A stretch of 64,000 nt of DNA from an uncultured cyanobacterium (GCA_963710605.1 CAVQBA010000004.1:480001-544000), one strand, 5' to 3'; counted from the first letter of the stretch, positions 51,602 to 63,999 are shown. Program-made: numbers and translations. The notes: generated by a model from the sequence alone, not told the origin.

Positions 51602-52093
51602 ATGAAAGCTAGAGAAATTATTCAAATTATTATTTTTATTCTGATAGGTTTAGCATTTATGTTTGGACTACAACCTTATTTATTTGATCAAAGAATACTA
51701 TTTGGAGTAGTAAGGAGTGTCACCTATAGTGAATGGATTGAGCAATATACCCTAGCCGCCGCAATTATCTTCGGTATTTCTGTTATTTTCACCATAATTT
51801 GGTGTGTGTTATTGTTAAAAAACCAAGATGGTAGTTACAGTACATGGAAAGCAGTTTGGTATGTTGGTTTATTTGTCTTAACCCTAATTGTGATTGGCAC
51901 AGTTTATATCAACAATCAAGATGACAATGGCGAATTGATTAGAGAAACTTTTATGCCGATGACACTCTGGCTTTTATTTGATTCATTATTTTTGCTTTAT
52001 TGGCTACCCACAGTAACTAGTACGCCCGGATTGTTAAAGAAAAAAGCAGTACCCGGAGCAATTTTAATTAATGATTTAATTGGCAGAAATTGA
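51602..52093 (+). CDS. 4-TM membrane protein, first gene of tubulin-like cluster
   Basis: Four hydrophobic segments; 33 bp from the next gene. Confidence 0.75.
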   Translation: MKAREIIQIIIFILIGLAFMFGLQPYLFDQRILFGVVRSVTYSEWIEQYTLAAAIIFGISVIFTIIWCVLLLKNQDGSYSTWKAVWYVGLFVLTLIVIGTVYINNQDDNGELIRETFMPMTLWLLFDSLFLLYWLPTVTSTPGLLKKKAVPGAILINDLIGRN

Positions 52094-52126
52094 GCGATAA
52101 TTTTAATACTCAGGAGAAGAATTAAT

Positions 52127-53624
52127 ATGGCTTTTTATGTAGTCGGGATAGGTGGCACAGGTGCAAAATGTATTGAGGCAATTATTCAACTAGCTTCTGT
52201 GGGTTTGTTTCCCACTAATAAGCTTAAAGTAATGTTTGTTGATGCTGATGAAACTAATGGTAACTTACAAAGAACACAGACTAGTTTAGGTATTTATCAA
52301 AAATGTCATCAATTACTCAGCGGTAAACATGATGAATGTGATTGGATGACAACTAATATTGAATCTTACTCAGTTTGGTCTCCTTTTGGTAATAAAAATA
52401 CGGATAAAAAACTTGGTTCTTTTTTTGGTTACAATACTTTAAAACAACAAAACCCAGCTTTAGCTAGCTTATTTGATGTTTTATACACTGAAGATGAACG
52501 AAAAGTATCTTTAGAAGTCGGTTTTAGAGGTCGTCCTGCGATCGGTTCTGGTATAATGACTCAGATTGATTCTCGATCGTTTAGAAGAAGAACCATGGCG
52601 TAGTTTCATCAACGAAATTGTCAACAATTCTAGTAGCGGTGGTGAAACCAAAGTATTGCTTTGTGGTTCAATTTTTGGTGGTACAGGTGCATCAGGCTTA
52701 CCCACGATCGGTAGATTAATTGCGAATAAGTTAGAAAAAGAAGGTGTTAGAGAGAAAGTTAAATTAGGTTGTATCTTCGCATTACCTTACTTTAATTTTC
52801 CGAAAGGCTCAGCTAATGAACAAGTTTATGCAAGTTCAGATTTATTTTTACTTAACACCGAAGCCGCTCTTAGGTATTATCGAGAGCAAGCTCAACAATT
52901 TGATGCTAAATATTTAATCGGGAATCAAACCTTTGAAAAACTAGGCGAATTCAGCATTGGGAAAGATACCCAAATTAATCGCCCTCACTTTGTTGAGTTT
53001 TATGCAGCCTTAGCCGCCCGTAACTTTTTTTGTGAGCAACCTGAAGAAGCTGTACACGTTATCAGTCGTCATCAGACAGGTTTACTCCGATGGGATGATA
53101 TACCGAATAGTAATGAAGTCAAAAGCAAATTAGTCAATGCCACTCGTTTTGCTTTTATTTGGTTAGCTGATTTTCAGTTTCAATTACAACTAGGTAAAAA
53201 TCAAGGTATAGGTGAATTAAACGGGTTAGGTTGGTTTGATAAATTTTTTCAAGGAAAAGCTCTATTTAGGAAAACCAGAACACATTTACCTGACTTGAGT
53301 GAAGCTCAACAACAAGAAGCGATTAAAACGATCGATAATTGGTGTCAAGACTACTTACGCTGGCTAAGTGATATTCATATTTGTGATAGCGAAAAAATCG
53401 AGTTATTTAAAGCCCGTGAGCATTTTCTTAATGGTAGAGGATTGAAACCCGAAAACTTCGCCGATTTGTTATTTGACGAATCTCGTACTAAAGATGATTT
53501 AACACAAGATAACCTTGTCAAACTCAAAAATACAATTTCAGAATTGGATACAACTAAATTTGGCGAACCAAATCAGGGAGTAGCAGGATTAGCTAAAGCA
53601 GTCTATGTTTGTTGCAAATTATAA
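52127..53624 (+). CDS. Divergent tubulin/FtsZ-superfamily GTPase (Tubulin_2-like, ~498 aa), split by a +1 frameshift at ~52570
   Basis: VVGIGGTG, DAD, GFRGRPAIG, GSIFGGTGASG signature; span 1497+1 bp; AGGAG RBS at 52112. Confidence 0.85.
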
Positions 53625-53632
53625 ACCGTTCA

Positions 53633-53779
53633 AGAATTTAGAATTTAGAATTTAGAATTTAGAATTAATACCTATTCCCCATTCCCCATTCCCCATTCCC
53701 TATTCCCTATTCCCCATTCCCTATTCCCTATTCCCCATTCCCTATTCCCCATTCCCTATTCCCTATTCCCTATTCCCTA
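53633..53779. repeat. (AGAATTT)n followed by (CCCYATT)14 heptamer array
   Basis: Fills almost the whole intergenic space, ending 5 bp before the ATG at 53785. Confidence 0.92.
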
Positions 53780-53784
53780 AAACT

Positions 53785-56700
53785 ATGGCAGATTTAATCT
53801 TATCCAAACTAAAAGACGACACCAATATTACTAAAGGGCAACCAGCACAATGGGAAGCCCGAAGTGATAAAGCATTTAGAGACGTAGCCGATAGTCTTGA
53901 TTATCAAGCCCCCGGTGTGATCAAAAATGTTAGTTCAGTACCGACAATGTGGGCTCGCCCTCTGATTACTGAAATGGCTTTATATGATCAAAATCACCCG
54001 ATTCATGAGGCGATGGTAGCTCAATGGCGAGGAATGTTAGCTGTTATTGCATTAGCAGAGATAGAAGGATTTGATCTCCAAGTTCAACTAATCGACTTAA
54101 GCACTCAACGTTATCAACCCTTTGGTGAAGCACTTTATCAACTTATTCCCGAACCAATCAATGCCCTTTATACCAGAGAAGGTAAAAACCCGTGGGAAGA
54201 AGTCTATGTTTTTGTCTGGCAAGGTAAACCAGTAGGTATGACCAGCCCTAGTACTCTTGTCTGTCCATCCGAAGAAGGAAAATGGACAGGATTACGTTGG
54301 TGGCAAAATGGTATGATTCAAAGCCCCGAACCATTTTTGAACGAAGAATCAAAAGAACTACTTTGGCGATGGTTAGAAAATATTCAAAATAATCTTACTA
54401 CTTATAATGGCTCTTCTGTAGCTGTTAATAAAATGATTGGTTTGATTGTTCAATTTAGAACCGATTTAGCAATTGAGAATTCCGCACCTGCCCCTTTAAA
54501 TTTAAGTACTAATCCTAACTTTTTTGGTGAGCCAATCAATCGAGGTGCATTAGTTTTACTTAATAACCCCGTGCGAATACCGCCTCAACCTTCAAACCTT
54601 AGAGTAATCCCTAGTGCAGTTAAAACTAGTGTTAAACCCCTAATTATTATTGACGAACAAATAGCTGATTTTTGGGGGCAACCTAAACAAAATATTTGGG
54701 TACATCAAGATAAAACTTTGGCTTCATTAAATATTGAAGATTTAAAAAACGGTAGGTTAGTTTGGGATGATGTTAACTGGATTACTTCTGCTGAATTATT
54801 TCTTGAAGAATTATATTTTATTGATTTAGATGATGCTTTACCTGGTGCTATCGTACCTCAATCAAATATTCCCCTTACTTTTAACAGTGAAAAAGTTACG
54901 CCTTTAATTCCCCTTAATCCCATCTTGTTAGACTATTTCACCCCAGAAGACTTGGTTAGTCATATTGAAATTGAACCATTTAACAATATTAATGGGCAGG
55001 GGTTACGACTAATTCTCAATTTGCCCTTATCAGGTATAGCCAATCAGAAACAATTTCAAGCTTATCGTCTGCAAAAAGAATATATTTTACATGAAGAAAA
55101 CGCTTTTAAATATTTACCTGTTTTAACTTTATGGCCGAATTTTCGATCGACTAACTGGCAACAATATTATACATTTTATTACGATGGTGATTATGGTGAT
55201 GAAACCTTCCGTGTTTTTGTACCTAATCAGGAAGTACGTCAATTCAAAGCCCCTGATGGTACAGGCTCGTATCAACTAGCTACAATGAACCAAATGCCTA
55301 GTCATGTAGTCTGTAAGGATAGTTACTACAAAGATATCGGTTTAATTCTGTTACCGACACTACCAGAAATAAATTCTCGTGGTAAGTGGAATGTAGGGGT
55401 TGATTTTGGTACTTCTTTTACTAATGTTTATGTCAAGGGCGAAAATACAGGTGATTTTCCTTTAGAGATGAATAAAGAATTACAATTGAATATTACCGAA
55501 AGCCCTATCCAGACTCGTTTACCTGCTTTACTTGAAAGTTTTGTTCCTGAAAAGTTTTTACCTTCAGAAGAGCCTTTACCTCTATCTACAGTATTAACTA
55601 CTAAAAACGGTAATGTTGATGATGGAGAATTACAAGCGATTCTTGATGGACGTATGTATGTACCAGATCCAACTGAATTTGATCCGAATAAACAATGGAT
55701 AAAGTTAGATTTAAAATGGTCAAATCTGAAATATTCTAAAGCCTTTTTACGTCATTTGTGTTTACATATTTCGGCTTTAGCCACTCAAGCGGGGATGAAT
55801 AGTATTGACTGGTGTATTTCTTATCCTAGTGCTTTTGCTTATGTCGATCGACTTACATTTCATCGTAATTGGCAAGAAATCGGTGAAGAATTAGCACCAA
55901 AGACTGGTATAAGTTATTCTTGCCCTGACATTGATGATACTCAACGTTTTTGTACTGAGAGTGTGGCTTTAGCTCAATATTTTAATGATAAAGAAAAACA
56001 TCCTTTAGTTTTAAATACTTGTATTGATATGGGTGGTGGCACATCGGATGTATCTATTTGGGAAAATCGTCGTATTGTTTATCAATGTTCGGTTTTATTT
56101 GCAGGTAGAAATATTTTCTCCGAAATTTTAGCCCTTAATCCTCCTTATGCTCAAAAATTAATGGCGGAATTTAGAATCAATAAAGATTGGACAGATTTGG
56201 GTGAAGTTTCGATCATGACTAATATTGATGTAGCCTTAAGACATTATGCAGAAGAATGGTTAGCTCAACAACGAGTTTATAAAAATGATGATACTTATTT
56301 CCAACGTTTAGTTACTCTAACCGCTTTAGGTGTAGCTGGTTTATATTATTATATTGGTCTAATTTTAAAAGTACTTCATACTGAAGGTAAATATAGTAAA
56401 GCCCAAATTACACCTGTTTATATTGGTGGTAATGCGTCTCGTTTTTTACATTGGCTTTCACCAACTGGTAAATACGATCAAAATTCAGAGTTTAATCAAT
56501 TGTTGAGTTTGATGTTAAGTAAGGCTTCTGGTTTTGAAGATAGTCAGGAAAAAACTCGTCTTAGCACTCGCCCTAAACATGAAGTCGCTTGTGGTTTGGT
56601 TTTAAGTAATACTCAATTAGTGGGAATGACAGAAAATAGCGATTGAGATCCTATTGCAGGAGAGAATTATTATGTAGAATATTATGATGATGATAATGAC

Positions 56701-57120
56701 ATTGAATATAAAGAAGAAAAAAGTTCTCATTCTCGTCTCCATTTTCAAGGTAACATAACTGATTTCAAAATAGATAAGTTAGATAATCTCGAAAAATTTT
56801 TATATGAGTTTAATGCAGGAATAAAAACTCTTAAAATTCAAAGTATCAAACCTCTAGCAAAATCAGATTACAAATTACAAAAACCTCAAGATAAAGATAA
56901 AAATCAAGATAAGGATAATTATAATCTTGAGAAGGACGAAACTACGACTAAAGACAAAAATAGTGAGCTTTGGAAAGATGTAAAATACCATCTTGAAAAT
57001 GAGTTATTAGATGTAAGAGGAGATGCCACTAAACTCGGTGAAAAAACTCCTTTTATTATGGGTTTGAAATCTCTTTTACATACTTTGGGTAAACGTTGGG
57101 CTGATTCTTACAAAGAATAA
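53785..57120 (+). CDS. Large actin/Hsp70-fold ATPase (~1111 aa) with an in-frame TGA at 56644-56646
   Basis: GVDFGTS, ESVA, IDMGGGTSD, YIGGNASR, PKHEVACG actin-fold motifs; frame stays open for 157 codons after the TGA to TAA 57118-57120. Confidence 0.82.
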
Positions 57121-57121
57121 A

Positions 57122-57168
57122 TTAGAATTCGGAATTCGGAATTCGGAATTCCGAATTTGGAATTCTAA
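57122..57168. repeat. Palindromic (CGGAATT)n heptamer array
   Basis: TTAGAATTC-GGAATTC...GAATTCTAA. Confidence 0.75.
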
Positions 57169-57253
57169 CTAAAGAAAATTAAAAATAAGAAATATTAATT
57201 CTCAATTCTCCACTTGTACTGAGCGTTAGTCGAAGTATTCTCAATTCATAAAG

Positions 57254-58012
57254 ATGTCTGTTTCTCAAACTAAAAAATGTCCTATTTGTGATACGCCTTA
57301 TACTCAAAGTCAAAAGCGATGTAGTCAATGTAGTTGGGATTTGACATTGTATCACGATGGTTTTTTGTCGAACGAGCAATCATTGAAAGTTCATATTTCA
57401 GCTCGAAAAATTTATAGTTATCTACAAAAATATCGTGAAATGGTTAAACAAATGCAACAAAAAATAAAATTGTCTCAAAAAAAAGAAGATGATTTACATG
57501 ATGAAAACGATCGATTAAAGCAAGAATTAGAGGAATCAAAACTATTACCATTACAAATATATGAACTTGAATTACAAATTAATAAGTTACAAACACAAAT
57601 TAAACAACTAGAGTCAGAAAAAAGAGAAAATCAGATTGAAGTTAATCAAAGTTTGGAACAATATGTAATAAATCAAGATAATCGAAATACTAGTTTTGTG
57701 TCTAAAAAAGGAATTCAAGTAACACCGACTAAAAAAAGTTTAGAAGATATTTATTTGAATAAAGCAGATGAAATCGTTTTTGAGGTATCGAATCAAAATG
57801 ATTATTGGATAGTAGAATTAGAATCAACAGTTTATTGTTTATTACCAAATAAAAATTTAGATATTAAACGTAACTTGAAAGCGATTAGACATTTTTTTGA
57901 ATTAGTTGATTATCAAGATAATACAACTTGGGAAGTGGTTAAATTAGCTTTAGTTGAAAAAATAAATATCGATTGATGGAAGTTTAAAACACAAGGTATT
58001 TTACAGTTTTGA
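57254..58012 (+). CDS. Zn-ribbon - coiled coil - shared C-terminal domain protein (paralog 1); internal TGA at 57974-57976
   Basis: CPIC...CSQCSWDL; conserved tail WKFKTQGILQF lies after the TGA. Confidence 0.78.
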
Positions 58013-58051
58013 TTATTACTAAATAACAATAAGTTATCTTACTATGAAATT

Positions 58052-58822
58052 ATGTCTTCTACTCACACTAAACAATGTCCAATTTGTGATTCAACTTGTT
58101 TATCGACAGAAACAGTTTGTACAAAATGTGGCTGGGATTTAACAATCAATCATGATTGTCATCTAGATGAAAAAATATTGCAGAAAATTCAAACAGTAAC
58201 TCGTAATGTTTATCAAAAATTCAGAAGATTAACGAAACGTTATCGCCAAGAAAGAAATGAATTAAAAACTCAAATGGATGAAATTAAAGATTTACCAAAA
58301 CAAATGTTTCAATTGCAACTACATGCTTCTAAATTAAAAAAAGAAAACGATCGATTGAAACAAGAAATAGAAAAATTACAAGTTGACAAGTTGAAGACGC
58401 AAATTGAACAATTTGACGATAAAAAAAGTAAAGACAAAATGAAGGTTGAAGAAAATATAGAGCAACATTCGATCGTTCAAGATTATCAAAATACTGATTT
58501 TTTAATGAAAAATGGTATTAAAGTAACGCCTACAAAAAAAACCTTAAAAGATATTTACTTAAATACAGTTAAGGAGATTATTTTCTATCCTGCTAAAGGT
58601 AATGATTATTGGATAGTGGAATTAGAATCAGGAATTTATGGTTTACTACCAAATGAAAATCTTGATATTAAGCGTAACTTAAAAGCGATTAGATATTTTT
58701 TTGAATTGATTGATTATGATGATAATTCTACTTCTACTTGTAAAGTGATTAAATTAGCTCAAGTTGAGAAAATAAATATCGATTGATGGAAGTTTAAAAC
58801 ACAAGGTATTTTACAGTTTTGA
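58052..58822 (+). CDS. Zn-ribbon - coiled coil - shared domain protein (paralog 2, chimeric); internal TGA at 58784-58786
   Basis: CPIC...CTKCGWDL; the same post-TGA tail WKFKTQGILQF. Confidence 0.78.
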
Positions 58823-58861
58823 TCATTACTAAACAACACTAAGTTATTCTACTATGAAATT

Positions 58862-59791
58862 ATGTCTTCTACTATTTACCCTAAAAAATGTCCAATTTGT
58901 GATTCAACTTGTTTATCGACAGAAACAGTTTGTACAAAATGTGGCTGGGATTTAACTTTGAATCATGATTATCATCATCTAGATGAAAAAATATTGCAGA
59001 AAACTCAAACAGCAACTCGTATTGTTTATCAAAAACTAAAAAAACTAACGAGCCGTTATCGCCAAGAAAGAGATGAATTAAGAACTCAAATGGATGAAAT
59101 AAAAGATTTACCACAACAAGTATTTGAATTACAATTACGGATTTCAGAGTTAGAAAAAGAAATAGAATCATCGTCTTTACAACAAAAAGATATTGAGCAA
59201 TTAAAGCAAGAAATATTATTAGAATTAGAAAATAAATTTAGAGATATTATTGAAAGACAAAATTTACAATCCACAGCACCTTCATCTAATGTTTTAAAAG
59301 AAAATTTCAAACAAGAAGAAAACGATAATATTCGAGCGACTGAAGATATTGATAACACTGAAAACAAACAAGAAAAAAACGATCGACATGATAATCAGCA
59401 ACCACAAATAAATAATAATGAAGAGAGTTATGTTATTAGAGAGTATTCTCAAAATACTAAAGTTTTCTCTCAATATACTTATAAAGTTACACTAACAAAA
59501 AAATGTTTAGAAAATATTTATATTAATAGAGCAAATGAAATTATATTTGAAATTTCTAATCAAAGTGATTATTGGGTATTTAATCACAATACAATACATT
59601 GCTATTTGTTACCAAAATTAGATTTTAAAATTAATATTAATATTAAAGCAGTAAGAACAATCTTTGAGTTACAACAATATAAAGAAAATAATACTTCTAA
59701 GCAATTTTTAGTTACCAAACCTGCTCGTGTTCAAGAAATAGACAATCAAAAGTGGAAATTAATCGAGCGAGGTATTCTCAGTTTTAACTAA
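58862..59791 (+). CDS. Zn-ribbon - coiled coil - shared domain protein (paralog 3)
   Basis: CPIC...CTKCGWDL; ends KPARV...KWKLIERGILSFN. Confidence 0.85.
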   Translation: MSSTIYPKKCPICDSTCLSTETVCTKCGWDLTLNHDYHHLDEKILQKTQTATRIVYQKLKKLTSRYRQERDELRTQMDEIKDLPQQVFELQLRISELEKEIESSSLQQKDIEQLKQEILLELENKFRDIIERQNLQSTAPSSNVLKENFKQEENDNIRATEDIDNTENKQEKNDRHDNQQPQINNNEESYVIREYSQNTKVFSQYTYKVTLTKKCLENIYINRANEIIFEISNQSDYWVFNHNTIHCYLLPKLDFKININIKAVRTIFELQQYKENNTSKQFLVTKPARVQEIDNQKWKLIERGILSFN

Positions 59792-59823
59792 TTTATTATT
59801 AATATTATTATGAAAAATAAAGT

Positions 59824-59940
59824 ACAAAATAATCCCCCTCTATCCCCCTTTCAAAGGGGGAAGGTTAAGGATACTTCACTTTTGTTTGAGGGGAGACTTA
59901 CAAATAATGAATGTACATCATAATGATGAAAAATTCTATA
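59824..59940. mobile_element. Truncated MITE copy flanked by a 30-bp direct repeat
   Basis: Matches 23730-23824; repeats at 59794-59823 and 59939-59968. Confidence 0.7.
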
Positions 59941-59954
59941 TTATTAATATTATT

Positions 59955-61454
59955 ATGAAAAATAAAGTTATTCAATTAATTATTATCGGCTTTTTTTTAC
60001 CTATATTTTTAAATAGTTGTAATCAAAATAATCAGCAAACTAACCAAACTAAAAGTGAGGAAGAAAAAATAGCTGAAGTAGTTACTATCGAAGAAAAATG
60101 GAGTGATGAAAAACAACAATTATACGATACTCTTAAACAAGAATATATTGCTTTTAATCAATATTTACAGCCTGAAAGCGATTTACTAAATCTGTTTGAA
60201 GAGCAAAGTAAAACTTCACCAACTAATATTGAGTTTAATCCTTCAAATCCAGATACAAATGAAATAGTTAATTTTACCGAGCAATACCAAAAGTTTTTTG
60301 ATTCTATTAGTGAATTAGAACAAGAATTTCCTGTAGAGCAACAAAATGTAGTTGAAAATATAGCTACGCAACTGAAGCAGTCTTCTGAAGATAATATTAG
60401 TTTAGCATCGATTGAATCTTTATTAGATGACCAGCAACTAACTCAAACAGAAATTTGTGAAAATATACAACTACCTTTACAAATAATAACTCAACAAAAT
60501 GACCCTGATTGTGGTATTTTTGGTCAGCAAACTTATACCGAATTAACTAATTTTTTAATACAAGAAAATCAAGAATTAGAATTTAAAATTAATCAACTAG
60601 ATACGATTGTAACACAACTTAAAAACTCCGAGCAAGAATCTTTAAATTCTAATATTAATCAAAATAAAGATAAAACAAATATTACTCAAAGTAAAGTAAA
60701 AACTGATAATTCGTTACCTATAGTTTTGCTTACTATTACTATTATTTTTAGTGTATTAAGTTTAATTGCTAGTATCTTCAACTATTTAGCAATTAAAAAA
60801 TTAAAAACAAGCAATCAACAAGCTAATGAAAATATAGATGAAAATAACAAAACAGAAATTGAACAATTAAAGTCTCAGATTGACAGCTATCTAGAAAAAA
60901 TAGCAATATTTGAAAGTAATACTCAAAAAATTCAAAATACTTTAGAAAATCAATCTATCACAATAAGAGAATTAGAAAATAAAAATCAACCTAAAAATAT
61001 AAACCCTTCTCGTATTAATAACTTACCGCCACAAAAATTATCTTCTAATTCCGAGGTATCAACAAATACTCATTTAGCACAAATTTATCAGCAAAATCCT
61101 AATAACCTACTACAAAATGGAACAAAAGTGGGTATGACAAAACAAACCACTAACAAAATTTTAGGTGGTGTATGGGATAATATTTTTTTAGAAGAAAATA
61201 GACGTACAGGAGAATACATAATTGTTAATCGTAATAACAGCGATAATAACAAATGTTATCTGTTTTTAGATCCTCATTCAATGTTTAATCCTCAGACTTT
61301 GGGTACTATTCATAAATCAGGTTTATTTGTTTGTCATGGTAACTTAGCCCAAAGTAGAAAGGGAGGTGAAATTACCATCAATAAACCCGCAACCGTAAAC
61401 AAAACACAACAAGGCTGGATGTTGATAGAAGCAGGAGAAATTAGTTTACCTTAA
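59955..61454 (+). CDS. Putative lipoprotein with internal TM helix, coiled coil and C-terminal shared domain
   Basis: MKNKVIQLIIIGFFLPIFLNSC lipobox (ATG 59955 preferred over TTG 59886); TM LPIVLL...IFNYL; ends KPATV...GWMLIEAGEISLP. Confidence 0.78.
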   Translation: MKNKVIQLIIIGFFLPIFLNSCNQNNQQTNQTKSEEEKIAEVVTIEEKWSDEKQQLYDTLKQEYIAFNQYLQPESDLLNLFEEQSKTSPTNIEFNPSNPDTNEIVNFTEQYQKFFDSISELEQEFPVEQQNVVENIATQLKQSSEDNISLASIESLLDDQQLTQTEICENIQLPLQIITQQNDPDCGIFGQQTYTELTNFLIQENQELEFKINQLDTIVTQLKNSEQESLNSNINQNKDKTNITQSKVKTDNSLPIVLLTITIIFSVLSLIASIFNYLAIKKLKTSNQQANENIDENNKTEIEQLKSQIDSYLEKIAIFESNTQKIQNTLENQSITIRELENKNQPKNINPSRINNLPPQKLSSNSEVSTNTHLAQIYQQNPNNLLQNGTKVGMTKQTTNKILGGVWDNIFLEENRRTGEYIIVNRNNSDNNKCYLFLDPHSMFNPQTLGTIHKSGLFVCHGNLAQSRKGGEITINKPATVNKTQQGWMLIEAGEISLP

Positions 61455-61577
61455 ATCGAATTAATTAATTATTGATAATTAATCTCTCATTATGTATTTA
61501 TCTTATAATTAGTCAAATAGTAATAATACTTAAAAAAATTAAAGTAAGTAAAATTTTTTTTGTTTGTAATTTAGATT

Positions 61578-62858
61578 ATGACGCAATCTTCTTATGATAA
61601 TGAATCTCAGCTAGAGCCTATTTATGATAAAATTCAACAACTAGATAAAAAGCTACAAAATTTAGAAAAATCTAGCCAGAAAGTAATCGTTACTGGAGGT
61701 AAGAAAAACTTTCAGCCAAAACCGCTATTCGTCAGCCAAGAAGAATTAATTAATTTATATAATTATTTACCAAATACATTGCTTGAGTATATTACTCCTG
61801 TTAATGTTACTGCTGATACCTACAGAGCAAAAACAAATAATAAAGTATATTTAGAATATAATTTGAATGGTTATTATTGGGTGATTTTAACTGAATCTGA
61901 ATCTCAAAAAGATTGTTGGTTAGTACCTAATGCCAATCGTAGAAATAATTTTCATCGTTTGCAAGACAAAATAAAATCTCTATTTATTATTCAAGGAAAT
62001 TTAGATAGTTATGATTATATTTTACAAAAACCAGCAAAAATAGAAATTTTTTCCAACGGTTTAAGATGGATTTTGATTAAGCAAGGTTGTTTACAAATAG
62101 GTAAAACTTCTCCTGCTGAGCAACTAATTAAAAAAATAGAAAATATTGAAAATAATAAAAACAAAGAAATACCAGAAATTATTATTATTAATAGTCAAAA
62201 CAAGATTAGTAAATTAAGTAATCAAATTAAAGAATATCAACAAAAAATTAATTCATTAGAAAATAATATTTATAAGCTTCAGCAAACTATAGAAAGTAAC
62301 TTATTAAGATTAAACAAATTAGAAAATCTAAATTTAAATCAAAATTACGACAATTGTTCATTATTACAACAATTAAAACAAGAAATATTATTAGAATTAG
62401 ATAATAAATTAAAAATAATTATTTCTCAACAAAATATTAATAGTTCTCAAGTAAAAAAAGAACATAATCATCAACTACAAATAAATAGTAAAGAAGAAAA
62501 AAAATTAATTAAATATTATTATTATAAAAGCGAAAAATTAGCTCACTATGGCTATAGAGTTACGTTAACTATAGAAAGTTTGGAAGATATTTACGCAAAT
62601 AGAGTAAATAAAATTATTTTTGAAAAATTTGCTCAAAGTAATTATTGTATATTTAAACTAAAGTCAGAAATTTACTATTTATTACCTGAATTTAATTTTA
62701 AAATTAGGACTAATATTAAAAGCCTAAAAACAATTTTTACAATTAAAAATTATAGAGATAACATTTCTAAACAATTTGAAGTTATTAAACCTGCCCATGT
62801 TAAAAAAATAAAATCTGACAAATGGGAATTAACAAAGCGAGGAATTCTCGAATTTTAA
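61578..62858 (+). CDS. Coiled-coil protein with two copies of the shared domain (chimeric)
   Basis: N-half nearly identical to 62947..63999; C-half resembles paralog 3. Confidence 0.82.
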   Translation: MTQSSYDNESQLEPIYDKIQQLDKKLQNLEKSSQKVIVTGGKKNFQPKPLFVSQEELINLYNYLPNTLLEYITPVNVTADTYRAKTNNKVYLEYNLNGYYWVILTESESQKDCWLVPNANRRNNFHRLQDKIKSLFIIQGNLDSYDYILQKPAKIEIFSNGLRWILIKQGCLQIGKTSPAEQLIKKIENIENNKNKEIPEIIIINSQNKISKLSNQIKEYQQKINSLENNIYKLQQTIESNLLRLNKLENLNLNQNYDNCSLLQQLKQEILLELDNKLKIIISQQNINSSQVKKEHNHQLQINSKEEKKLIKYYYYKSEKLAHYGYRVTLTIESLEDIYANRVNKIIFEKFAQSNYCIFKLKSEIYYLLPEFNFKIRTNIKSLKTIFTIKNYRDNISKQFEVIKPAHVKKIKSDKWELTKRGILEF

Positions 62859-62946
62859 CTTAGAACGATCGCTTTTTGTCTTTACGATAAAAATAAAATT
62901 ATTAAATTAACTATTACTTATATTATCTCTATTTCTAATTTAGATT

Positions 62947-63999
62947 ATGACGCAATCTTCTTATGATAATGAATCTCAGCTAGAGCCTATTTATGATAAA
63001 ATTCAACAACTAGATAAAAAGCTACAAAATTTAGAAAAATCTAGCCAAAAAGTAATTGTTACGGGTGGTAAAAAAGACTTTCAGCCAAAACCGCTATTTG
63101 TTAGCCAAGAAGAATTAATTAATCTCTACAATTATTTACCGAATATATTACTCGAATATATTACGCCTGTTAGTATTACAGCAGATACTTACAGAGCAAA
63201 AACTAATAATAATATTTATTTGGAATATAACTTAAATGGTCACTATTGGGTGATTTTAACTGAATACGAATCTCATAAAAATTATTGGTTAGTACCTAAT
63301 GCCAATAGAAAAAATAATTTTCACCGTTTACAAGATAGAATAAAATCTTTATTTATTATTCAAGGAGATTTAAATAGTTATAATTATACGTTAGAAAAAC
63401 TAGCAGGAATTGAAATTTTAGCTGATGGTTTAAAATGGTATTTAATTGAAAAAGGTTATTTACAGATAGGCAAAACTTCTCCGATAGAACAACTTATTAA
63501 AAAGCTAGAAAAACTAAAAACTGAAAATGGTGAAATACCGCAAAATATTATTGGTTTAGTTGAATCTATTGATTTATATTATCAAAAAACTTTAAATATT
63601 GAAAAAGAACAAAAAGAGCTAACAAAAGCAGTAGTTAAAATAACTGATATAATAATTACTAATAATAATAAGTTAACTAAAACAACTAATAAACTAGAAC
63701 AAACTATTCATAAGTTAGAGAAAGAAGTTTATCAAACGATTGATCATAATCAACAACAAAATTTAGAAAATTTAGCAACTTTTGAACAAAACTTTGAACA
63801 AAAAATAAAAATAATTAGTACTAAAGTAAGCGAAAATTACCAAGAAAAACAAATATTAAGAGATGATTATGAAAAACTAAATAAAGATTTTAAACAACAA
63901 CAAAGAAAAGTTAAAAACATTAATAGTAATCTTGGTTGTCTTAATTTTTTACTCATCGTAGTAGTCTTAGTTTTATCAATAATTTTAATTAATATATAA
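62947..63999 (+). CDS. Shared domain - coiled coil - C-terminal TM (tail-anchored) protein
   Basis: N-terminus MTQSSYDNESQLEP...; ends LNFLLIVVVLVLSIILINI. Confidence 0.82.
   Translation: MTQSSYDNESQLEPIYDKIQQLDKKLQNLEKSSQKVIVTGGKKDFQPKPLFVSQEELINLYNYLPNILLEYITPVSITADTYRAKTNNNIYLEYNLNGHYWVILTEYESHKNYWLVPNANRKNNFHRLQDRIKSLFIIQGDLNSYNYTLEKLAGIEILADGLKWYLIEKGYLQIGKTSPIEQLIKKLEKLKTENGEIPQNIIGLVESIDLYYQKTLNIEKEQKELTKAVVKITDIIITNNNKLTKTTNKLEQTIHKLEKEVYQTIDHNQQQNLENLATFEQNFEQKIKIISTKVSENYQEKQILRDDYEKLNKDFKQQQRKVKNINSNLGCLNFLLIVVVLVLSIILINI

Follow-up and report, generated by a model that had tools for sequence, protein, structure and literature searches.

A cyanobacterial gene cluster pairing an FtsZl1-type GTPase with a large actin-fold ATPase and coiled-coil proteins that share one domain

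Introduction

The closest described relatives of the locus analysed here are the FtsZl1 proteins (Pfam Tubulin_2; Makarova and Koonin, 2010; PMC2875224), and its GTPase is a member of the same Pfam family. According to the main text of that paper, FtsZl1 proteins include a distinct cyanobacterial clade, co-occur with true FtsZ and have lineage-specific uncharacterised neighbours, many of them transmembrane (TM) proteins, from which membrane-associated complexes were proposed. The operons described in that text are built around vWA proteins, P-loop GTPases, protein kinases and OmpA, whereas the present cluster contains none of these. Hsp70 does not occur in the main text, and its six mentions of actin include no ATPase partner; the ATPase described below may figure, unnamed, among the FtsZl1-associated families A1-A2 and B1-B9 of the supplements (PMC2875224).

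The FtsZ-FtsA pair of the divisome resembles the locus in that the gene of a tubulin-superfamily GTPase lies beside that of an actin-fold ATPase, which in the divisome acts at the membrane, and FtsA is among the best structural matches of the ATPase studied here. The present cluster differs in that it lacks the dcw context, true ftsZ being located elsewhere, and in its patchy distribution with plasmid-borne copies. Its ATPase is also larger, at ~1100 aa including an N-region of ~530 aa and a tail of 150 aa, and remains below the Pfam and NCBIfam cut-offs for FtsA. The fold and the nucleotide-binding motifs of ATPase residues ~532-941 are likewise those of MreB, BeeR, ParM, MamK and Hsp70 nucleotide-binding domains (NBDs), but identity to these actin-like filament formers and Hsp70 NBDs is only 10-18%, no family HMM is passed and the ATPase has large extra domains.

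The DO-GTPase/GAP1 systems (Kaur et al., 2020; PMC7159879) are, like the cluster, multi-gene systems in which tubulin- or HSP70-superfamily proteins occur with Zn ribbons, TM components and linked genes that vary. These systems are defined by TRAFAC DO-GTPases and GAP1, whereas no P-loop NTPase family was found in the nine proteins of the cluster. Tubulin and HSP70 fall there into separate, non-overlapping themes, which include vWA and FNIII proteins and are seen in Firmicutes and Actinobacteria; in contrast, the tubulin-like and actin-fold genes described here form an obligate adjacent pair.

As far as our literature search reaches, the tubulin-like family (FtsZl1) is the only part of this system in print so far; the gene set has no name in Pfam, NCBIfam or PADLOC, and none was found in the literature. 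The first-pass annotation of this DNA had proposed a candidate undescribed system, which holds, within the reach of the same search, for the gene set and not for the tubulin-like family and its operon habit, both described in 2010 in the text cited above (PMC2875224).

Results and discussion

Organization of the locus

The window, i.e., the whole stretch of 64,000 nucleotides from an uncultured cyanobacterium that was analysed, contains nine co-directional genes on the + strand between positions 51602 and 63999 (ORF calls). The six coiled-coil proteins are called adaptors 1 to 6 for convenience.

51602..52093, +: small membrane protein, 163 aa, 3-4 hydrophobic helices, first core gene (ORF)
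52127..53624, +: Tubulin_2/FtsZl1-type GTPase gene, in two overlapping ORFs (52127-52603 and 52566-53624)
53633..53779: 7-nt spacer tandem arrays, AGAATTT x4.9 and CCTATTC x15.6, between the GTPase and ATPase genes (Tandem Repeats Finder)
53785..57120, +: large protein, ~1111 codons, with a ~530-aa N-region, an actin/Hsp70-fold ATPase domain and a ~150-aa C-terminal tail
55380..56615 (approximate), +: predicted ASKHA (actin/Hsp70) ATPase domain, model residues ~532-941
57125..57165: 7-nt tandem array GAATTCG x5.9, 3′ of the ATPase gene (Tandem Repeats Finder)
57254..58012, +: adaptor 1, Zn ribbon, coiled coil, shared domain (ORF 57254-57976)
58052..58822, +: adaptor 2, Zn ribbon, coiled coil, shared domain (ORF 58052-58786)
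58862..59791, +: adaptor 3, with Zn ribbon and coiled coil; its shared domain is complete (59417-59788)
59886..61454, +: adaptor 4, hydrophobic/signal-like at the N-terminus, followed by a region of ~250 aa, a single TM helix, a coiled coil and the shared domain (61059-61451)
61578..62858, +: adaptor 5, two copies of the shared domain (61731-62108 and 62490-62855) with a coiled coil between them
62947..63999, +: adaptor 6, shared domain at 63100-63477, then a coiled coil and a TM helix at the C-terminus

This is the gene content given by the first-pass annotation (one 4-TM protein and one Tubulin_2/FtsZl1-type GTPase, together with a protein of ~1111 aa and six with coiled coils), and all the motifs that it had quoted were found in the window (GIGGTG, GSIFGGTGASG, DFGTS, DMGGGTSD, GGNASR and EVACG). 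Its observation is confirmed, and its interpretation is partly supported. The cluster does not continue beyond the window, as had been thought possible: adaptor 6 is complete (stop codon 63997-63999), the genes downstream encode an RsmE-type methyltransferase, a Thf1-type thylakoid formation protein (PF11264) and SerRS, and a genome-wide domain search detected no further copy of the shared domain past the window end. The flanks consist of housekeeping genes.

The core proteins

The small membrane protein presents three hydrophobic segments at a hydropathy threshold of 1.6 in the window copy and four at 1.5 in its orthologs. Its gene lies upstream of the tubulin-like gene in all seven relatives' loci that were compared, and 4-TM proteins of 163 and 217 aa occupy the equivalent position in Longimicrobiales and Oscillospiraceae loci. 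In Pfam, it matches DUF4064 alone, below threshold.

The assignment of the second protein to the tubulin superfamily is supported by its intact ortholog L015, which matches PF13809 with 31.2 bits (cut-off 27), and by precomputed data in which 110 of the 120 listed homologs carry this domain. In our scans, L015 alone passed the cut-off, the homologs of G027 (L016), Oscillospiraceae and Longimicrobiales remaining below it; of the two pieces of the split window gene, one scored 16.9 bits and the other nothing. Across 25 sequences, there is no variation in the T1, T3 and T4 motifs, among them the glycine-rich nucleotide-binding loops T1 (GGTG) and T4 (GGTGxG), nor in GIGGTGAK and GSIFGGTGASGLPT, both present in the window GTPase. 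In hhalign comparisons, T3 and T4 fall opposite those of FtsZ, weakly (E 0.016, probability 2.9%), and a sequence-profile search of the PDB with the GTPase found neither tubulin nor FtsZ. The gene is not ftsZ itself, as had been noted: true ftsZ lies on another contig and the dcw context is absent. Polymerisation of the GTPase is uncertain, because the T6-H7 elements (FtsZ filament contacts) could not be identified in the FtsZl1 family, according to the main text of Makarova and Koonin (PMC2875224).

The C-terminal half of the large protein, suspected from its motifs to be an actin/Hsp70-type ATPase, is predicted to adopt this two-lobed, RNase-H-like fold: the AF2 model of an ortholog (pLDDT 92, pTM 0.83) matches the ASKHA fold in structure searches with Z 17-20. 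With model residues 532-941, VIA-align retrieved MreB (4cze, Z 19.6, 288 aligned residues, rmsd 3.8), followed by BeeR (8r2n, Z 17.9), ParM (Z 17.5), PilM (Z 17.4), FtsA (Z 17.4 and 17.2) and the Hsp110 NBD (Z 17.1), and Foldseek gave 417 matches at E <= 0.001 (E ~1e-6, prob 1.00, for these folds). Matches to ParM and AlfA range from Z 14.5 to 17.5; FtsA and PilM are membrane-tethering members of the ASKHA group. The phosphate-1 (DxG), phosphate-2 (DxGGGT) and adenosine (GG) motifs of the window protein read VGVDFGTS, CIDMGGGTSD and YIGGNASR, and residues D540/F541/G542, E724, D747/G749 and G880 are invariant in 76 sequences. At the sequence level, the protein stays below the Pfam cut-offs of MreB_Mbl (17.3-21 bits versus 27) and FtsA (16.7-21.6 versus 31.8) and the NCBIfam cut-offs of MreB (15.7 versus 293) and FtsA (15.1 versus 175.85), and it has no match to Hsp70 family HMMs. 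SrfB (PF07520), suggested only by the Atlas (score 0.82; 19% of a single cluster), was rejected, with no match at E <= 10 in the whole genome and likewise none in three distant homologs.

Interrupted reading frames

Several genes of the cluster are interrupted in the assembly. The GTPase gene is split by one extra T near 52571, a base absent from four aligned orthologs. The ORF of the large protein (53785-56646) stops at a TGA (56644-56646), and the same frame runs on to a TAA at 57118-57120 (953+1+157 = 1111 codons); this TGA aligns with AAA, TTA or ATA codons of the orthologs. Adaptors 1 and 2 each have an in-frame TGA (57974-57976 and 58784-58786) followed by 11 conserved codons, and in adaptor 1 the domain match continues through it. 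The GTPase orthologs of relatives (499-503 aa, single unbroken frames) and the ATPase orthologs (1076-1102 aa, no internal stop) are uninterrupted; therefore, reading the window copies through, as in the repaired frames of the first-pass annotation, is justified.

These lesions, four of them inside 7 kb when compared with orthologs or paralogs, could also mean that the array of this genome, with its frameshifted GTPase, truncated ATPase and two truncated adaptors, is decaying into functionless pseudogenes, and in one other genome (G093) the ATPase is broken by a 1.6-kb insertion carrying a 443-aa ORF on the opposite strand. We consider such decay improbable. Three of the four lesions are of a motif-specific CGAT-TGA type that recurs throughout the genome, where in-frame TGA stops cut essential genes too (ClpB, UvrD, MnmG, a PBP and RNR are all affected). 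Among the 28 in-frame TGA interruptions of the whole genome, 17 read GAT-TGA and 13 read CGATTGA; the CGATCG motif occurs 8449 times in the genome, and long frames contain 14 C-GAT-TGA versus 611 in-frame C-GAT-CGA. The fourth is situated within a GATC at a distance of three bases from a CGATCG, the remainder of each gene is conserved, and the completeness of the genome (84.9% in 7 contigs) is as expected if such errors break marker genes. The frameshift and the in-frame stops are thus probably assembly artefacts, although the GTPase frameshift, unlike the C-to-T type of the other lesions, may be real. The system is probably intact in the organism, since the breaks in the window copies are most likely assembly errors.

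Adaptor proteins

The six coiled-coil proteins do have one domain in common, as had been noticed: it measures ~120 aa and is present in seven copies (alignment; HMM E 1e-28 to 1e-37). Seven of the nine copies in the genome are at this locus, and 43 instances were collected over the window and ten further loci, with 2 to 8 per 20-kb locus. The AF2 model of the adaptor 3 copy (pLDDT 92.1) has no detectable structural relative (best Z 3.0). In ATPase paralogs of relatives, the shared domain replaces ATPase residues 1 to ~265-330. The Zn ribbons and the TM segments, the latter in adaptors 4 and 6, agree with the earlier description. Walker-A-like strings occur only in adaptors 5 and 6, immediately behind the shared domain.

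The paralog shuffling described at first was recovered as tandem duplication of the adaptor paralogs with mosaic, recombined identity profiles. Identity to the nearest relative is 37-52% for the adaptors versus 77-80% for the NTPases, indicating faster divergence of the adaptors. To call them interchangeable overstates the case: the Zn-ribbon, signal/TM, tail-anchored and double-domain types recur in relatives.

Gene linkage and a proposed mechanism

The co-localisation of the two NTPase genes in other genomes is strong. They occur in the identical 15 of 41 related genomes and are adjacent by coordinates in 14, being located on two contigs in the fifteenth (G018). The order 4-TM protein, GTPase, ATPase, adaptors is kept in all seven relatives' loci that were compared; among four further cyanobacterial loci, two keep this order, the third has an insertion and the fourth consists of the pair only. 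On Oscillospiraceae and Longimicrobiales contigs, from two other phyla, the GTPase gene lies directly upstream of the ATPase gene and a 4-TM protein precedes each pair. The pair carries consecutive locus tags in six named genomes, and two database representatives (1605 and 1341 aa; E 3e-73 and 2e-83) are GTPase-ATPase fusions.

The folds and families, the gene linkage, the fusions and the common domain are thus observed, whereas polymerisation, the binding partners and the cellular role are inferred. The reading that we favour, giving it about an even chance, is a single machine composed of a three-gene core and an adaptor set, i.e., a membrane-anchored, FtsZ/FtsA-like module of two NTPases with docking adaptors. 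The core would consist of the small 4-TM protein, the divergent tubulin-superfamily GTPase (Tubulin_2/FtsZl1) and the ~1100-aa actin-fold ATPase protein. On the cytoplasmic side of the membrane, GTPase and ATPase would work as an obligate pair, much like FtsZ and the actin-fold FtsA that holds and regulates it. Anchoring of the assembly would fall to the 4-TM protein and the membrane adaptors, and the family-specific ~120-aa domain, which coiled coils link to a tail anchor, a membrane-spanning segment or a Zn ribbon, would be a docking domain that couples soluble and membrane adaptors to the core.

Distribution and other possible functions

The system is patchy within one family (four of the seven genomes of one genus, none of the five of another) and was detected in 8 of 101 genomes of a phylum-wide sample. 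Most copies are chromosomal. Matches covering at least 80% of the ATPase occur on five cyanobacterial plasmids; of the six matching records, two are typed as mobilizable, and the system fills about a fifth of a 47.5-kb Gloeothece plasmid. Patchy distribution and plasmid copies are as compatible with an accessory or conflict role as with a cell-biological one.

The first-pass annotation had suggested a conflict or defence role. In an NTP-dependent anti-phage or anti-plasmid system, the NTPases would set a threshold or assemble on infection, and the Zn-ribbon and membrane adaptors would be sensors or membrane-damaging effectors. Besides the patchy presence within family and phylum and the plasmid copies, two of them on records typed mobilizable, this explanation would account for the adaptor paralogs that are tandem, mosaic, variable in number between loci and faster diverging than the NTPases, and a published class of conflict systems also employs tubulin or HSP70 components (PMC7159879). 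We regard it as possible but doubtful, and the defence role as such is unsupported by the present tests. No PADLOC-DB 2.0.0 model matches the 4-TM protein, the GTPase or the ATPase, either in the window or in two orthologous sets, and the matches of the adaptors to LmuB, LeoA and JetC (E 1e-5 to 0.09) are coiled-coil noise. Among 26 shared-domain proteins found by a word-index search, none has a fused enzymatic effector or a recognisable nuclease, protease, TIR or similar domain, and the search of a phage collection gave no match. Moreover, the same adaptor types recur in relatives, the genes flanking the cluster are housekeeping ones, the DO-GTPase of the published systems is absent and none of the nine proteins belongs to a P-loop NTPase family.

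The membrane-anchored module favoured above also has to be weighed against a system that positions or segregates a replicon or an organelle, with TubZ-like and ParM-like motors, in which the Zn-ribbon proteins would serve as adaptors for cargo (DNA). Established partition motors include tubulin-fold and actin-fold ones, the structural matches of the ATPase include ParM and AlfA, and the share of the Gloeothece plasmid taken up by the system, together with the other plasmid copies, would suit such a role. We nonetheless judge it very improbable: the majority of copies are chromosomal, and the conserved 4-TM protein and membrane adaptors are without counterpart in type II or III partition systems. 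Neither a centromere-like repeat nor a DNA-binding domain was found, the sole repeats being the 7-nt spacer arrays, and ParM is one third as large as the ATPase.

Organization of the gene cluster

The ORF reading of the window places nine co-directional units on the + strand, and every sequence motif quoted in the first-pass annotation for these genes was found in the window. The main features are the following.

Features of the cluster (window positions)
51602-63999, + strand: cluster of nine co-directional units, the first encoding a small hydrophobic protein of 163 aa (4-TM protein)
52127-52603 and 52566-53624, + strand: tubulin-like GTPase gene, read as two overlapping ORFs
53785-56646, + strand: large protein (ATPase), a 953-codon ORF ending in TGA; the same frame stays open for 157 more codons, to 57120
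53633-53779 and 57125-57165: three tandem arrays with 7-nt units (AGAATTT, CCTATTC and GAATTCG) filling the spacers on both sides of the ATPase gene
Within 51602-63999, + strand: six ORFs with abundant coiled-coil sequence (adaptors 1 to 6)

The GC content is 21-38% (1-kb windows), and a promoter and terminator scan detected sites no more often than in shuffled sequences (69 versus 72.3 and 4 versus 4.2). The 5′ neighbours include MoaA, a GST-like protein, a glyoxalase-family protein and families of unknown function such as DUF697. The suggestion that the cluster might continue past the window is not borne out, since it stops at the window end and is followed by genes for an RsmE-type methyltransferase, a Thf1-type thylakoid formation protein and SerRS.

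Interrupted genes and the CGATCG motif

The orthologs in related genomes are uninterrupted single frames of 499-503 aa for the GTPase and 1076-1102 aa for the ATPase. Compared with four of these orthologs, the GTPase gene of the window carries one surplus T near 52571. The in-frame TGA of the ATPase gene aligns with AAA, TTA or ATA codons of the orthologs, and adaptors 1 and 2 are each broken by an in-frame TGA, beyond which 11 more codons finish a domain common to the six adaptors (the shared domain). All three TGAs have the same form, CGAT-TGA (56640-56646 in the ATPase gene, 57970-57976 and 58780-58786 in adaptors 1 and 2).

Throughout the source genome, a TGA with at least 60 open codons beyond it breaks 28 long frames; GAT precedes this TGA in 17 of them and the full CGATTGA is present in 13, compared with GAT-TGA in only 43 of all 456 TGA-ended long frames. 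Stops of the CGAT-TGA type cut at least 13 long genes. Eight of the cut genes were looked up individually; they encode ClpB, a UvrD-type helicase, MnmG, a PBP transpeptidase, ribonucleotide reductase, a TonB-dependent receptor, a CheB/CheR histidine kinase and a helicase-methyltransferase. The genome contains 8449 copies of CGATCG, a motif commonly methylated in cyanobacteria, together with 988 CGATTG and 1015 of the complement CAATCG, each about twice as many as CGATAG (451); in frame, C-GAT-CGA occurs 611 times and C-GAT-TGA 14 times.

A recoding of TGA (genetic code 4 or 25) was ruled out: TGA terminates 363 of 2158 long frames, the median open stretch to the next in-frame stop is six codons, as for TAA and TAG, and the in-frame cases go with a particular DNA motif. 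Nor does the identity of the codons beyond the TGA, 11 in each of adaptors 1 and 2, speak for translation, since the two genes are 90-95% identical throughout their 3′ ends, non-coding DNA included. In the simplest reading, the in-frame CGAT-TGA stops are probably C-to-T miscalls inside CGATCG in this assembly (GCA_963710605.1), in which case each interrupting TGA would really be CGA (Arg); this also agrees with a completeness of 84.9% in only seven contigs. The GTPase frameshift also falls within a GATC, at a distance of three bases from a CGATCG, but it is not of the C-to-T kind and may be real. Taken together, the breaks in the window copies are probably not real. A true decay of the cluster in this genome, which would be compatible with other readings of the system, seems quite unlikely. 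Users of the assembly should treat in-frame CGAT-TGA stops as probable errors rather than as pseudogenes or recoding.

Elsewhere on the same contig, an open frame some 1286 codons long (locus L056, 1014421-1018278, − strand) encodes ribonucleotide reductase domains followed, about 440 residues further on, by a CHAT domain. This may be a gene fusion, or a pair of genes that share one frame.

A divergent tubulin-like GTPase and an actin-fold ATPase

The intact GTPase ortholog of a relative scores 31.2 bits against Pfam Tubulin_2 (cut-off 27), and PF13809 is present in 110 of the 120 listed homologs; more distant homologs score below the Tubulin_2 cut-off. A language-model search also places the GTPase among Tubulin_2 clusters (0.98). 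Across 25 sequences the T1, T3 and T4 loops show no variation, and a weak hhalign alignment with FtsZ brings T3-T4 into register; a sequence-profile search of the PDB returned nothing relevant. The true ftsZ gene of the source genome is located on a different contig. Judged by its sequence, this family is FtsZl1 of Makarova and Koonin (2010), for which that study (PMC2875224) describes a cyanobacterial clade and lineage-specific unknown neighbours.

Sequence-based methods detect only the phosphate-2 motif in the ATPase, at which FtsA and MreB are matched in a PDB sequence-profile search with E values of 0.2-1. An AlphaFold2 model built with 76 family sequences is confident (pLDDT 92, pTM 0.83), and its structural alignment identifies residues 532-941 as an ASKHA domain (Foldseek E ~1e-6), matching MreB (Z 19.6), BeeR (17.9), ParM (17.5), PilM (17.4), FtsA (17.4) and the Hsp110 NBD (17.1). 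The nucleotide-binding residues are invariant. This domain is flanked by an N-region of about 530 aa and a 150-aa tail; structure searches with the whole model were filled by ASKHA-domain matches. SrfB, a lead from Atlas, was unsupported on follow-up search.

A profile search of 1.84 billion representatives yields 1822 clusters of the ATPase family at E ≤ 0.001, of which 756 remain at E ≤ 1e-30. In some relatives the gene cluster also encodes a shorter paralog of the ATPase (L013:6949-9879, − strand; L017:13574-16687, + strand; L019:12353-14578, + strand), which is absent from the window cluster. In the L013 and L017 paralogs, the shared domain of the adaptors replaces residues 1 to ~265-330 at the N-terminus, which ties this domain functionally to the ATPase.

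Linkage and distribution

The first-pass annotation had linked the two NTPases from the window only; this association holds in other genomes: of 41 related genomes, 15 have both genes and none has just one, and the two are adjacent in 14. In one of these 14, the distant relative G027, an ORF for a Uma2-family endonuclease (E 1e-35; L016:11185-11745, − strand) lies between them. The full gene order is retained in all seven relatives' loci (7/7). Four further cyanobacterial loci comprise two with the full set, one with an insertion in the ATPase gene and one with the pair only. The insertion, in a Nostocales-type genome (L047, 8988-10651 on contig 1 of G093), is 1.6 kb long and contains an oppositely oriented ORF of 443 aa; the 20 kb fetched at this locus revealed no shared-domain gene.

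The ATPase is present in 8 of 101 genomes sampled across the phylum. Beyond cyanobacteria, the pair is adjacent in both contigs with sufficient upstream sequence, each time preceded by a 4-TM protein. A scan of genome contigs confirmed at least five loci, L024 giving a match of about 80 aa only. Two representative proteins are GTPase-ATPase fusions. Six plasmid records match, five of them covering at least 80% of the ATPase; phage records gave no match. The GTPase-ATPase pair is large and old.

The shared domain and its adaptors

The shared domain (about 120 aa) occurs in seven copies among the six adaptors of the window, and 43 instances come from the window plus ten other loci, one of them on a Sericytochromatia contig. 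The adaptors display four architectures.

Adaptor architectures in the window
Three genes (adaptors 1, 2 and 3): Zn ribbon, coiled coil, shared domain
Signal-like segment, TM helix, coiled coil, shared domain
Shared domain, coiled coil, shared domain
Shared domain, coiled coil, tail anchor

The model of the shared domain is confident (pLDDT 92.1). Foldseek returned no solved structure at E ≤ 0.001, and in VIA-align over 48,161 chains no match reached Z 5, the highest being GrpE at 3.0, which does not in itself prove a new fold. Against the ATPase profile the domain has an hhalign probability of 0.5%, so it is not a duplicate of the ATPase N-region. No enzymatic domain was detected in 26 further shared-domain proteins.

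The tandem adaptor paralogs (57254-59885 and 61578-63999) have mosaic identity profiles. Adaptor 1 matches adaptor 2 at 90-95% identity in the 3′ end, adaptor 2 matches adaptor 3 at about 90% across the first ~240 nt, and identity between adaptors 5 and 6 is 100% at the start, dropping to about 50%. This pattern suggests recombination or gene conversion among copies. Adaptors 5 and 6 alone contain a Walker-A-like string, GxLQIGKT, just after the shared domain (~62085-62108 and ~63454-63477), probably by chance because no NTPase domain follows it. Two further shared-domain copies are encoded by a 362-aa ORF about 260 kb away on the same contig (800654-801592, − strand; L061:3652-4740), adjoining a histidine kinase; in relatives, a comparable double-domain gene is placed divergently upstream of the cluster.

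Possible function and novelty

These facts support a single machine, with three core genes plus docking adaptors. As a working analogy, FtsZ with FtsA or a PilM-type actin-fold tether would come closest to the GTPase with its ATPase, a mechanism to which we give an even chance for this cluster. The main rival, a conflict system, is less likely; the defining parts of the tubulin/HSP70 conflict systems described in PMC7159879 appear to be missing from the window cluster. A positioning system, the lesser rival, is improbable. Co-folding of the GTPase, ATPase residues 1-335 and the shared domain scored 0.22 against a mark of 0.32, which, in a run without controls, speaks neither for nor against a complex. 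More broadly, and only tentatively, the cluster could represent a widespread composite cytoskeleton, in which a tubulin-fold GTPase and an actin-fold ATPase would work only together (fused in some lineages), with a dedicated 4-TM anchor and, as readout, an adaptor domain of a fold unseen in solved structures, spread by plasmids over cyanobacteria and at least two other phyla.

The core proteins found no named match in family libraries, and our literature searches found no description of the gene set, although the ATPase may be among the unnamed associated families listed in the supplements of PMC2875224. The cluster is best seen as a variant of FtsZl1-centred systems, apparently new as a gene set. 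Conserved together with a membrane anchor of its own, the pair is fused in some organisms; NCBI/JGI annotate every named protein as 'hypothetical protein'. To our knowledge, and as far as our searches went, FtsZ-FtsA is the only other described bacterial obligate genetic pair of tubulin-fold and actin-fold NTPases. The 15-year-old question of the role of the divergent FtsZl1 tubulins thereby gains a concrete, testable set of partners. Plasmid copies were found in Picosynechococcus strains, which are related to PCC 7002, a tractable model strain.
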